Below are positions 12,205-14,722 of a DNA stretch of 64,000 bases, in pieces. Below the pieces are notes generated by a model, which did not search any database, had not been told where the DNA came from, and saw only the letters and a list, made by a program, of their open reading frames with translations. The stretch's first letter is position 1, and the number at the start of each line of letters is the position of its first letter. The DNA comes from Candidatus Dormiibacterota bacterium. Its GTDB lineage: Bacteria > Chloroflexota > Dormibacteria > Aeolococcales > Aeolococcaceae. The position numbers and the translations under genes are program-made. Where the stretch lies: assembly GCA_963777285.1 (NCBI GenBank), contig CAVZPR010000001.1, positions 589,039 through 653,038 of the forward strand, in the 5' to 3' direction.

Positions 12205-12810
12205 CTGGAGCGCGACTGGTTCGCGCGGCCCGCGGCGACGGTGGCGCGCGGCCTCGTGGGCTGCACGCTGCTGGTCGACGGGGACACCGCGGACGCGGTC
12301 TGCGCACGCATCGTCGAGGTGGAGGCGTACGAGGGCCTCCGCGACCCGGCGTCGCACGCGCACCGCGGTCCGACGCCGCGCGCCGCCATCATGTTCGGTG
12401 CCGCCGGCTTTCTCTACGTGTACTTCTCGTACGGCGTGCACCACTGCGCCAACATCGTCAGCGACGTGGACGGGACGGCCGGTGCGGTGCTGCTGCGCGC
12501 TGCGTCGGTGGAGCAAGGCGCAGACGTCGTCGCTCGCCGCCGCGGTGTGCGGGATCACGACGCGCTGCTGCGCGGGCCAGGAAACCTGTGTCGCGGCTTG
12601 GGAATCTCACTCGCGGACAATGGGATGGACCTCTGCGCGCCGGGGGCGCGGCTGACGGTGCGGTCGCGCGACGCCGAGCCACCCATCGCCGTCTCGCGCC
12701 GCGTCGGCATCAGCGCCGCAGCCGACCGCGAGCTGCGCTTCACGTGGCGCGATCATCCTGCGGTGTCGGGACGGCGGCCACGGCCGCGCGTCAGCGCATC
12801 TGCGATGTGA
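12205..12810 (+). CDS. mpg: DNA-3-methyladenine glycosylase (MPG/AAG family); probable CTG start
   Basis: VEVEAYEG..DPASHAHRGPTPRAAIMFG.AG.LYVYFSYGVHHC is the MPG family core. The conserved N-terminal LERDWFARPAATVA lies upstream of the first canonical start (GTG 12241). Confidence 0.85.
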   Translation: MERDWFARPAATVARGLVGCTLLVDGDTADAVCARIVEVEAYEGLRDPASHAHRGPTPRAAIMFGAAGFLYVYFSYGVHHCANIVSDVDGTAGAVLLRAASVEQGADVVARRRGVRDHDALLRGPGNLCRGLGISLADNGMDLCAPGARLTVRSRDAEPPIAVSRRVGISAAADRELRFTWRDHPAVSGRRPRPRVSASAM

Positions 12811-12833
12811 CGCGAAGCCGCTGCGGGCGGGGC

Positions 12834-12863
12834 AAAAAAGAAGGGACCGGCTGAGCCGGTCCC
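12834..12863 (-). terminator. Intrinsic terminator, strong on the minus strand and possibly bidirectional
   Basis: GGGACCGGC-TGA-GCCGGTCCC (12843-12863) preceded on the plus strand by AAAAAAGAA. This reads on the minus strand as stem-loop + TTCTTTTTT. On the plus strand it sits 33 nt after the mpg stop with a weaker T-rich tail. Confidence 0.8.
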
Positions 12864-13071
12864 TGTGTATCTGTTGCGCCGTTTCTAAGCGGCAGCCCGG
12901 TAGACATTCCCGGGCCTGATTGTGTTGTGAGGCCGTTGGCCTCAGCGGTACTCGCCCGGTCCCGCGGCGCAGCCGCGACCCCGGGCCTCAGACCTCCGCT
13001 CGGCCGTGCCTCAGTCGTTCCCAGACGGTGCTTGCGATCGTGATCACCTCCGTCTGAAGGGTGTGTACCTT
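12834..13071 (-). ncRNA. Candidate stand-alone structured sRNA (~235 nt), family unknown
   Basis: Minus-strand promoter TTGGAA (13105-13100) - 17 nt - TATCAT (13082-13077). The intrinsic terminator lies ~235 nt downstream. No credible ORF. Many local GC hairpins. CUGAGGC occurs three times. GGAGGUGAUC at 13051-13042. Confidence 0.5.
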
Positions 13072-13143
13072 CCTCGATGATAGACCGAATCCGCGCCGCT
13101 TCCAACACCCAAACCGCGCCCGTGTGGCTGACGAGCGGAGCCG

Positions 13144-13188
13144 TAGAACTCGGAGCAGATCGGAGCCTACAATTCCGAACACTCGTTC
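13144..13188 (+). promoter_or_regulatory. yebC-ruvCAB promoter with LexA (Cheo-type) box
   Basis: -10 TACAAT at 13168-13173. Perfect GAAC-ACTC-GTTC at 13177-13188, just downstream of the -10 and 16 nt before the yebC ATG (SD GGAGG at 13196-13200). Confidence 0.65.
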
Positions 13189-13204
13189 GCTTCCTGGAGG
13201 TCCC

Positions 13205-13963
13205 ATGTCCGGCCACAGCAAATGGGCTGGCATCAAGCACAAGAAGGCGGTCGTCGACGCCCGCCGCGGCCAGGTGTTCACCAAGGTGGCGCGTGAGCTG
13301 GCGGTCTCGGCGCGCGAGGGTGGCCCCGATCCCGCGGGCAACTTCCGCCTGCGCCTCGCGATCCAGAAGGCCCGCGAGGTCAACATGCCCGCCGACAACA
13401 TCGACCGCGCCATCCAGCGTGGCGCCGGCGGCAAGGAGGGAGCGCAGCTCGAGGAGGTGCGCTACGAGGGCTACGGCCCCAACGGCGTCGCCGTGATGGT
13501 CGACACCGTGACGGACAACCGCAACCGGACGGTGGCGGCCATCCGCAACGTCTTCACTCGAGCCGGCGGGTCGCTCGGAGAGACGAACAGTGTTGCCTGG
13601 ATGTTCACGCAGCAGGGCCTGATCCGCGTCGACGCGCGCGGCCGAGACCCCGAGGAGCTGGCGCTCGAGCTGCTCGACGCCGTCGACGTCGGCGACGACG
13701 GCGACGTCACGGTGGACGGCCGTGAAGTGCAGGTGACCGTGGCGCCGGCGCGCTTCGAGGAGACGCGCCGCACCCTCGAGGAACGCGGCTACACCATCGA
13801 CACCGCCGAGGTGACCATGAATCCCAGCACCTCCGTCGAGCTCGACGCGCGCCAGGCACCTGCCGTGCTGCGCCTGCTCGACGCGCTCGAGGAGCACGAC
13901 GACGTCCAGCAGGTCTATGCCAACGCCGAGATACCGGACGACGTCCTCGAATCCGTGGGCTGA
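13205..13963 (+). CDS. yebC: YebC/PmpR family DNA-binding regulator
   Basis: MSGHSKWAGIKHKKAVVDARRGQVFTKVARE ... YEGYGPNGVAVMV. Confidence 0.95.
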   Translation: MSGHSKWAGIKHKKAVVDARRGQVFTKVARELAVSAREGGPDPAGNFRLRLAIQKAREVNMPADNIDRAIQRGAGGKEGAQLEEVRYEGYGPNGVAVMVDTVTDNRNRTVAAIRNVFTRAGGSLGETNSVAWMFTQQGLIRVDARGRDPEELALELLDAVDVGDDGDVTVDGREVQVTVAPARFEETRRTLEERGYTIDTAEVTMNPSTSVELDARQAPAVLRLLDALEEHDDVQQVYANAEIPDDVLESVG

Positions 13964-14005
13964 CGCCCGCCCGGCCCGCCGAAGCCGTGTCGAGGTGAAA
14001 GAGCC

Positions 14006-14132
14006 GTCGCGGGTCCTGCCGCCTTCGGGTGCCCCCCGCGCGGCTCCTCGGGAATCGCCGCGCGGGTTCCTCCCCTCCGGCGTCACCCGCGACGGCACAT
14101 CGATGGTCTTCCCCTCCGGCAGGACCCGCGAC
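14006..14132. repeat. 127-nt GC-rich long-hairpin intergenic element
   Basis: 16-bp closing stem GTCGCGGGTCCTGCCG (14006-14021) / CGGCAGGACCCGCGAC (14117-14132) around ~95 nt. The interior contains an internal 10-bp hairpin CCCGCGCGGC/GCCGCGCGGG and a C(UUCG)G-type loop. Size and build match the elements at 21043 and 22660. Confidence 0.6.
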
Positions 14133-14161
14133 GAGATAGCCGACTCGCCGGACGCGATGGC

Positions 14162-14722
14162 ATGACGCGGGTGCTCGGCGTCGATCCTGGGTTGGGCCGC
14201 ACGGGCATCGCGCTGGTGGACGGCGCGCCCGGGGCGCTGGAGCTGGTCAGCGCGGCGCGGCTGGACACCGTGCCGCAGACGAGCGAGGCGGCGCGCCTGG
14301 CGAACCTGTTCGCCCTGGTGCTGGATGCGATGGAGACGCTGCGTCCCGAGGTGGTCGCCGTGGAGCAGCTTTTCCTGTCGACGAACCGGCGCACCGCCAT
14401 GCGCGTGAGCGAGGCGCGCGGCGTCATCCTCTGCGCGGCGGGCCGGCTCGGTCTGCCCGTCGCCGAGTACACGCCCAATCAGGTGAAGGAGGCGGTGTGC
14501 GGCCACGGCGGCGCGTCAAAGCCGCAGGTGGGCCGCATGACGCGGCAGCTGCTCGGGCTCGACACCGCCTCGGACGACGTCGCCGACGCCTGCGCCGTCG
14601 CCGTCTGCCACCACCACCGCGCGGGTCTCAGCACGCTGCTTCGGGCGGCGCCCCGTGTCATGCCCGCGCGCCTGGAGGCTGCGGTCGCGCGGGCTCGGGC
14701 CAGGCTCGGGGTGGTGCGGTGA
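14162..14722 (+). CDS. ruvC: Holliday junction resolvase RuvC
   Basis: VLGVDPGLGRTGIALVD ... AVEQLF ... DVADACAVAVCH. Confidence 0.95.
   Translation: MTRVLGVDPGLGRTGIALVDGAPGALELVSAARLDTVPQTSEAARLANLFALVLDAMETLRPEVVAVEQLFLSTNRRTAMRVSEARGVILCAAGRLGLPVAEYTPNQVKEAVCGHGGASKPQVGRMTRQLLGLDTASDDVADACAVAVCHHHRAGLSTLLRAAPRVMPARLEAAVARARARLGVVR

Follow-up and report, generated by a model that had tools for sequence, protein, structure and literature searches.

The window analysed here is a 64,000-nucleotide stretch of DNA from Candidatus Dormibacterota, a phylum that is abundant in soils, peat and permafrost, is uncultured, and is known almost entirely from metagenome-assembled genomes (MAGs). Between mpg and yebC, two genes read on the plus strand, lies a spacer whose minus strand carries the signals of a complete small transcription unit: a promoter, a short open reading frame (sORF) behind a Shine-Dalgarno (SD) sequence, a series of hairpins and an intrinsic terminator. 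The features of the locus are given below, those of the minus-strand unit in the order of its predicted transcription.

12241-12810, plus strand: mpg (Pfam Pur_DNA_glyco)
13168-13173, plus strand: -10 element TACAAT of the yebC promoter, read in the sequence
13176-13189, plus strand: Cheo-type LexA box CGAACACTCGTTCG, directly after the yebC -10 element TACAAT
13196-13200, plus strand: SD GGAGG of yebC, read in the sequence
13205-13963, plus strand: yebC (Pfam; ruvC was also assigned by Pfam)
13100-13105, minus strand: -35 hexamer TTGGAA, with the -10 hexamer the sole promoter-like match
13077-13082, minus strand: -10 hexamer TATCAT, at a 17-nt spacer from TTGGAA
~13070, minus strand: predicted transcription start, placed by promoter spacing
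12834-13070, minus strand: whole predicted transcript of ~237 nt, a short form of the family
13039-13070, minus strand: 5' UTR, containing the 5' arm of hairpin P1 and the SD
13056-13050, minus strand: 5' arm of P1, CAGACGG, in the 5' UTR
13051-13047, minus strand: SD GGAGG, in the 5' UTR
13051-13042, minus strand: GGAGGTGATC, the 10-nt extended SD of the window, read in the sequence
13047-13045, minus strand: in-frame GTG, an alternative start for the sORF
12988-13038, minus strand: sORF, opened by ATC (13038-13036) and ended by TGA (12990-12988)
13028-13022, minus strand: 3' arm of P1, CCGTCTG, within the sORF codons Thr-Val-Trp
12954-12987, minus strand: post-stop GC-rich hairpin GGCCCGGGGTCGCGGC-TGC-GCCGCGGGACCGGGC, directly after the stop codon
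12929-12943, minus strand: hairpin Hx, GAGGCC-AAC-GGCCTC (covariance model R1)
12895-12915, minus strand: hairpin Hy, GCCCGG-GAATGTCTA-CCGGGC (covariance model R1)
12878-12893, minus strand: hairpin Hz, GCCG-CTTAGAAA-CGGC (covariance model R1)
12877-12865, minus strand: A-rich linker upstream of the terminator hairpin
12864-12842, minus strand: terminator hairpin AGGGACCGGC-TCA-GCCGGTCCCT, with a 10-bp stem, read in the sequence
12841-12834, minus strand: terminator U-run TCTTTTTT, after the terminator hairpin
12791-14506, minus strand: 571-aa open frame, antisense to yebC and ruvC, which crosses the RNA region

An earlier note on this DNA had read the spacer as a stand-alone minus-strand unit encoding a strongly structured RNA of no known family, placed back-to-back with the SOS-controlled promoter of yebC. 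The elements on which it relied, namely the promoter, the terminator, the hairpins, the GCCTCAG copies, GGAGGTGATC and the ATC frame, are all present at the coordinates that it gave, and each part of this description held. TTGGAA-17 nt-TATCAT is the only promoter-like match between 12000 and 14000, compared with 0.1 expected from shuffles. The minus-strand RNA (242 nt) folds with an energy of -115.7 kcal/mol and a z-score of -5.1 against dinucleotide shuffles, while the plus strand of the same region reaches -3.3 against such shuffles; the window hairpin at 12986-12954 includes a nested GCGGC-TGC-GCCGC. Searches against Rfam 15 (6S, tmRNA, RNase P, SRP, raiA, riboswitches and others) returned no gathering-score match in the 64-kb window and none in 15 related long-form loci, and in E-value mode the window and its relatives gave chance-level matches only (at most 17 bits, E of 0.49 or above). 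A literature search found no report of an sRNA, another non-coding RNA or a small protein in Dormibacterota. As to the placement, a LexA-type box is indeed present in front of yebC; its core, CGAAC-N4-GTTCG, is kept in all 15 aligned relatives, which supports SOS control of yebC-ruvCAB. The RNA's own promoter carries no LexA-type box.

We then asked how far the unit is kept in relatives. These were 80 loci collected via YebC, with proteins from Candidatus Dormibacterota MAGs that are at most 86% identical over their full length; YebC thus assigns the window to this phylum. BLASTN and an alignment of the spacers showed that the mpg-yebC spacer is conserved on the minus strand of the window, and a nucleotide profile built from it found one site per locus in 31 relatives. 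In all 31 of these loci, which the nucleotide profile had found by itself, the frame of the sORF is intact. The parts of the unit are, in order: promoter, SD within a 5' hairpin, sORF, post-stop hairpin, an optional central domain, Hx, Hy and Hz, and terminator. Counting genome and metagenome members together, the family comprises at least 145 Dormibacterota loci.

The genome members and the metagenome members listed fall into two length classes, of ~240 nt and of 310-350 nt, with most relatives showing the long form (~335 nt). Long forms carry a central domain of ~95 nt inserted at the post-stop hairpin; it is absent from the window and from L069, which with L031-33, L037 and L038 make up the short forms. 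The predicted transcription signals are kept as well. A promoter of the type TTGnnn, 16-19 nt, TAnnnT, often with a perfect TTGACA, stands at the equivalent site, ~35-45 nt ahead of the SD, in 31 of the 33 genome relatives. An intrinsic terminator follows the stop codon at a distance of 125-290 nt in 33 of the 34 genome members (26 recognised by script and 7 more by eye; the remaining one, L036, ends at the contig edge), and a terminator is present in 100 of 111 metagenome members among the matches listed. The spacer is conserved in sequence in relatives, and its 3' hairpins covary, as described below. With the whole unit kept in relatives, its occurrence goes beyond chance, and on these sequence comparisons we regard the locus as a real, conserved feature that had gone unannotated. 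The RNA gene is probably strongly expressed.

The spacer had been said to contain no credible ORF, and on this point the relatives tell otherwise: the 16-codon frame is the best-conserved segment of the unit, with an identity of 0.91 within the closest clade, and shows a protein-coding pattern of substitutions. Across the family the sORF has 14-16 codons and the consensus M-R-T-V-[W/F/Y]-x-x-L-R-H-[T/G]-R-A-E-(x)-stop; the window version reads (AUC) I-A-S-T-V-W-E-R-L-R-H-G-R-A-E-V-stop. Searched with a regular expression for the peptide, 34 of 81 sources gave a match, in every case a single sORF that runs opposite to yebC and has a GGAGG upstream. Synonymous codon differences amount to 43.5% in the frame of the sORF, against 12.6% and 8.9% in the two shifted frames. 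Arginine codons change between CGN and AGR, the codons for Thr, Val, Gly and Ala vary at their third position, and any of TGA, TAG and TAA can serve as the stop; altogether the members have 87 distinct ORF sequences, which encode 65 distinct peptides. These substitutions indicate that the amino-acid sequence of the predicted peptide is under purifying selection.

For metagenomes we used a degenerate DNA pattern made up of the SD, a gap and 14 partly specified codons, with the stop left unspecified. It matched once in each of 32 genome loci, had no second match in any of the 80, matched at least 120 loci in the JGI metagenomes and had no match in the viral collection. The metagenome set carries an ascertainment bias, since the pattern allows no change at Arg9, Ala13 or Glu14 and limits the choice at Val4 and Arg12; the set is informative for the stop and for residues 3, 5, 10 and 11. 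The stop falls exactly 0 or 1 codon after Glu14 in 111 of the 120 metagenome loci listed, residue 3 is mostly Thr, and residue 5 is always Trp, Phe or Tyr, though the pattern would have allowed Leu, Cys or a stop. Four Arg, one His and one Glu make the peptide basic and hydrophilic, and it contains no hydrophobic stretch. Compared with PDB sequences, its profile gave a single 7-residue chance match (E 0.47) and no ribosomal or known small protein.

Translation signals accompany the frame. GGAGG stands 6-14 nt upstream of an ATG, GTG or TTG start in 32 of 33 relatives, and therefore reads as an ordinary ribosome-binding site. The window differs at the start codon: where the relatives have ATG, GTG or TTG (GTG in the nearest one, L069), it has ATC followed by GCA, so the window copy may be weakly translated. 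Its frame and its conserved residues are intact despite the ATC, and this copy is either weakly translated, from the AUC or from the in-frame GUG at 13047-13045, or drifting, as far as its sequence tells.

Through pairing of the 5' UTR with codons 3-5 of the sORF, the SD and the start codon become enclosed. The helix joins CAGACGG with CCGTCTG in the window and GGTACACG with CGTGTACC in a member with Tyr at residue 5. The expected number of pairs between UTR and codons 3-5 is 5.4 when each member is combined with its own UTR, 3.4 with the UTR of another member and 2.7 with a shuffled UTR, which shows covariation of the UTR with these codons. For the GGAGG, the unpaired probability averages 0.31 over 133 members. 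On the other side of the frame a GC-rich hairpin begins 0-5 nt past the stop in 129 of 133 members, which is weak evidence in a genome that is itself GC-rich. A candidate anti-SD, CCNCCGU in the central domain, was considered and rejected: the base opposite the A of the SD is never U, and the window has no such domain.

Beyond the sORF, the last 135 nt, with Hx, Hy, Hz and the terminator, were described by a covariance model, R1. It gave one match in each of 100 sources, that of the window at 12833-12969 (74 bits, E 3e-14). In the R1 alignment 93.6% of the cells are paired, compared with 34-49% in slid-register controls; 23 of 27 pairs show double-sided changes, and the compensatory cells number 226 against 55 in shuffles. 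All 6 pairs of Hx are changed on both sides (most relatives have GGCACC...GGTGCC), Hy is 98% paired with compensatory changes in 3 of its 6 pairs, Hz has such changes in 4 of 5 pairs, and all 9 pairs of the terminator helix covary. Since the alignment was fitted to the model, these figures lean towards structure, but covariation between clades is clear for the terminator, Hx and Hz in the aligned sequences. The conserved stems are mostly invariant and GC-rich, and part of the structure signal is thus plain sequence conservation.

Within the closest clade, identity is 0.76 for the 5' UTR, 0.76 for the central domain, 0.80 for the 3' hairpins and 0.79 for the linker and terminator. For comparison, identity in these genomes is 0.57 at the four-fold degenerate sites of the neighbouring yebC, where 0.42 would be expected at random. 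The non-coding 3' part evolves much more slowly than the synonymous sites of yebC, which indicates that it, too, is under purifying selection, and Hx, Hy and Hz are kept across clades whose YebC proteins are only ~60-65% identical. No second SD-preceded ORF common to the members was found in the 3' domain. Neither was a conserved single-stranded seed for base pairing in trans, the loops and linkers varying between clades. The members contain repeated complementary segments, GCCCGG and CCGGGC. We could establish neither a long-range helix in which the post-stop GGCCCGG pairs with the conserved CCGGGC upstream of Hx nor a switch in the style of 1:2/2:3/3:4 pairing; these segments are nearly invariant, so that covariation has no power for such a helix, and the long-range pairs proposed by RNAalifold are inconsistent across clades.

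The unit is closely tied to mpg. The two genes are convergent, tail to tail, in 32 of 33 genome loci and in 87 of the 96 listed metagenome loci with enough flanking sequence, and the pairing holds even where the unit no longer adjoins yebC. The distance from the mpg stop codon to the RNA 3' end has a median of -6 nt. The terminator of the RNA contains the mpg stop in many genomes, as in ...KKKGPD-TGA in the terminator loop, and the mpg frame crosses the A-run into the terminator hairpin in L009, L021, L129 and ~50 other loci; in the window it stops 23 nt short of the RNA 3' end (window 12808-12864). The A-rich linker of the RNA is U-rich on the mpg strand and the mpg stop is close or overlapping, so the terminator is probably bidirectional and ends the mpg transcript as well. 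With a shared terminator of this kind, the RNA and mpg transcripts would overlap in antisense at their 3' ends.

The exceptions to this pairing have unrelated neighbours, an alpha/beta hydrolase in one case, and in two the terminator has been lost. The two latter are the metagenome members L124 (~258-700) and L177 (~176-600), numbered with the sORF oriented on the plus strand. Their 3' hairpins run into a co-directional gene, which encodes a secreted protein in L124 and is an unrelated ORF in L177; they could be rearrangements or insertions that truncate the RNA.

We interpret the locus as an independent gene for a coding (dual-function) small RNA specific to Candidatus Dormibacterota, and give this reading a probability of roughly 0.55. 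The predicted transcript of 240-350 nt would have two constrained parts, a mini-mRNA at the 5' end and an RNA domain at the 3' end. In the mini-mRNA, the GGAGG ribosome-binding site would drive synthesis of a basic, non-hydrophobic peptide of 14-16 residues. With the SD and the start held within the helix that the UTR forms with codons 3-5, initiation may be gated by structure; with the GC-rich hairpin right after the stop, a terminating ribosome would have to open the first helix of the downstream domain. The remaining 125-230 nt would consist of the optional central domain, Hx, Hy, Hz and the terminator shared tail to tail with mpg. This 3' part may act as RNA, as a stabilising or regulatory domain, possibly via its unavoidable antisense overlap with the 3' end of the mpg mRNA. 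We infer that the sORF is translated and that the RNA part is active.

The main rival is a plain small-protein gene, in which the peptide would be the sole product and the 3' region a protective, structured 3' UTR with an mpg-shared terminator. The strong coding signature favours it, with an identity of 0.91 in the sORF against 0.76-0.80 elsewhere, and the missing conserved unpaired seed and the dispensability of the central domain, which the short forms do without, point the same way; a structured 3' UTR that stabilises the mRNA would suit most of the data equally well. Generic stabilising structure, however, needs no conserved stem sequences, whereas here the 3' region is kept at 0.76-0.80 against 0.57 at synonymous sites and three specific hairpins persist across clades with YebC ~60-65% identical, and we hold this simpler reading to be rather unlikely, though to be taken seriously. 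At the other extreme, the earlier note had proposed a purely non-coding sRNA that titrates a protein or ribosomes through its repeated CUGAGGC and an exposed anti-16S sequence. The strong fold (z-score as above), the local enrichment of the motif in the window (GCCTCAG at 12939, 12985 and 13008 accounts for 3 of the 9 copies in the entire 64-kb window, both strands counted) and the window's 10-nt match to the complement of the 16S 3' tail all speak for it. In the closest long-form relatives, however, copies 1 and 3 read TTCCGGC and CCCGGCA; copy 1 is made of the codons Leu-Arg-His, copy 2 of the stop codon and the start of the post-stop hairpin, and copy 3 of a stem found only in the window. 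Likewise, what had been called a super-SD shrinks to GGAGG(T) in the family, the 10-nt form and the CUGAGGC triplet being limited to the window and its nearest relatives. That neither is conserved contradicts a titrating non-coding RNA, as do the conservation at the amino-acid level, the fixed stop position and the canonical starts of the relatives, and we consider this explanation highly improbable.

A tiny leader-peptide gene, also raised in the earlier note, comes closest of its ideas as far as the coding part is concerned. The unit is unlikely to serve as a classical leader or attenuator, however, since what lies past the terminator is a convergent gene and not a co-directional one. In its cis-acting form, a leader or arrest peptide would remodel the hairpin that abuts the stop and thereby influence RNA folding or terminator read-through, sending antisense RNA into mpg. 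The layout resembles an attenuator (strong SD, ORF of 14-16 codons, GC hairpin 0-5 nt past the stop), with complementary GCCCGG/CCGGGC repeats and an intrinsic terminator behind them; mpg is convergent at the frequencies given above, with its stop within the terminator in many genomes; and the invariant R-A-E by the stop, with an aromatic residue seven positions upstream of Arg12, may be a lead towards an arrest peptide in these sequences. Against this, there is no co-directional downstream gene, regulatory codons do not occur in runs in the ORF, 125-230 nt with independent hairpins separate the stop from the terminator, no conserved antiterminator pairing was found, and short and long forms differ exactly in the would-be switch region, which leaves such a peptide improbable. 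Also improbable is a self-contained system of RNA and peptide. In one version, translation of the arginine-rich 15-mer would switch the downstream fold, making the RNA a translation sensor; in the other, the peptide would bind a conserved hairpin of its own transcript to form a small RNA-protein complex. The output of either version would act on mpg, a DNA-repair gene convergent with the unit, or on other genomic targets; if true, such a system would be a regulatory RNA gated by its own mini-ORF and confined to an uncultured phylum.

For the dual-function sRNA reading, the closest known kind is the group of coding sRNAs that includes SgrS/SgrT, to which we would assign the family by its predicted transcription, its coding signature and its constrained RNA domain; it is probably a new family within this kind. 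A precedent for an sRNA-encoded protein of 15 residues is SpfP, encoded by Spot 42 of E. coli (PMC8916003). Like Spot 42 and SgrS, the unit is a short, stand-alone transcript with its own promoter and intrinsic terminator, both predicted here, and like Spot 42 it combines a protein of ~15 aa, here a predicted one, with conserved non-coding structure. Unlike them, it is confined to Dormibacterota and has its sORF right at the start of the transcript, preceded by a strong SD; the family showed no base-pairing seed, and there is no sequence or structural similarity to either and no homology to Spot 42. At 240-350 nt the transcript is also two to three times longer than Spot 42.

RNAIII/hld of Staphylococcus aureus, of 514 nt, encodes a 26-aa amphipathic toxin, and it pairs with SD sequences through the C-rich loops of its 3' hairpins. 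The Dormibacterota unit is similar in having a small 5' ORF followed by a large multi-hairpin 3' domain that ends in a terminator, but its peptide is basic and hydrophilic, it has no conserved C-rich loops, and the two are not homologous. The leader-peptide attenuators and arrest peptides trpL, TnaC and SecM share several elements with it: a strong SD, an ORF of 14-16 codons whose C-terminal region is conserved, a GC hairpin directly at the stop codon and, further downstream, an intrinsic terminator. They differ in what follows: the Dormibacterota unit has a convergent next gene, no runs of regulatory codons and a distant terminator, and the family loci showed no co-directional genes past the terminator, no runs of sensed codons and no conserved antiterminator. 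Lastly, the type I toxin-antitoxin locus bsrG/SR4 is a convergent cis-antisense pair overlapping at the 3' ends. Here, too, a peptide-coding RNA and its neighbour converge on a shared or overlapping terminator sequence; unlike BsrG, however, the peptide is neither hydrophobic nor transmembrane in character, its partner is a gene for a housekeeping DNA glycosylase and not an antitoxin RNA, and the overlap may merely reflect a shared bidirectional terminator. Thus the family loci encode no hydrophobic toxin, and their sole antisense partner is the 3' end of the mpg mRNA.

Standard annotation misses this family, as the ORF is under the length threshold of every gene caller and the RNA is in no RNA database. 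It combines a peptide conserved across much of the phylum, a covarying scaffold of 240-350 nt and a strong predicted promoter. Confirmation would enlarge the short list of dual-function RNAs by a family of at least 145 loci with 65 distinct peptides, and would offer a concrete handle on post-transcriptional regulation in Dormibacterota.

We do not regard the 571-codon minus-strand ORF that crosses the RNA region as a gene: Pfam gives it no match, and its position antisense to yebC and ruvC is typical of a shadow ORF in a genome of ~68% GC. It warrants no annotation. In one Dormibacterota relative (L028:3754-4000), mpg and yebC are adjacent without the sORF RNA between them, and the spacer holds two ~60-nt direct repeats (GCCGGCTGCCGCACC..CGCCGCACGG..CAGCAACGCGGCA) in its place. 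We also observed Dormibacterota-like yebC genes on contigs L015, L037, L049, L069, L071, L078 and L079, whose MAGs are labelled Binatia, Micrarchaeaceae archaeon, Verrucomicrobiia, Acidiferrales, Sulfotelmatobacter, Eisenbacteria and Nitrosotalea; these contigs are probably mis-binned. The sORF RNA is present on four contigs with such odd labels as well (L015, L037, L069 and the neighbour group of L036).
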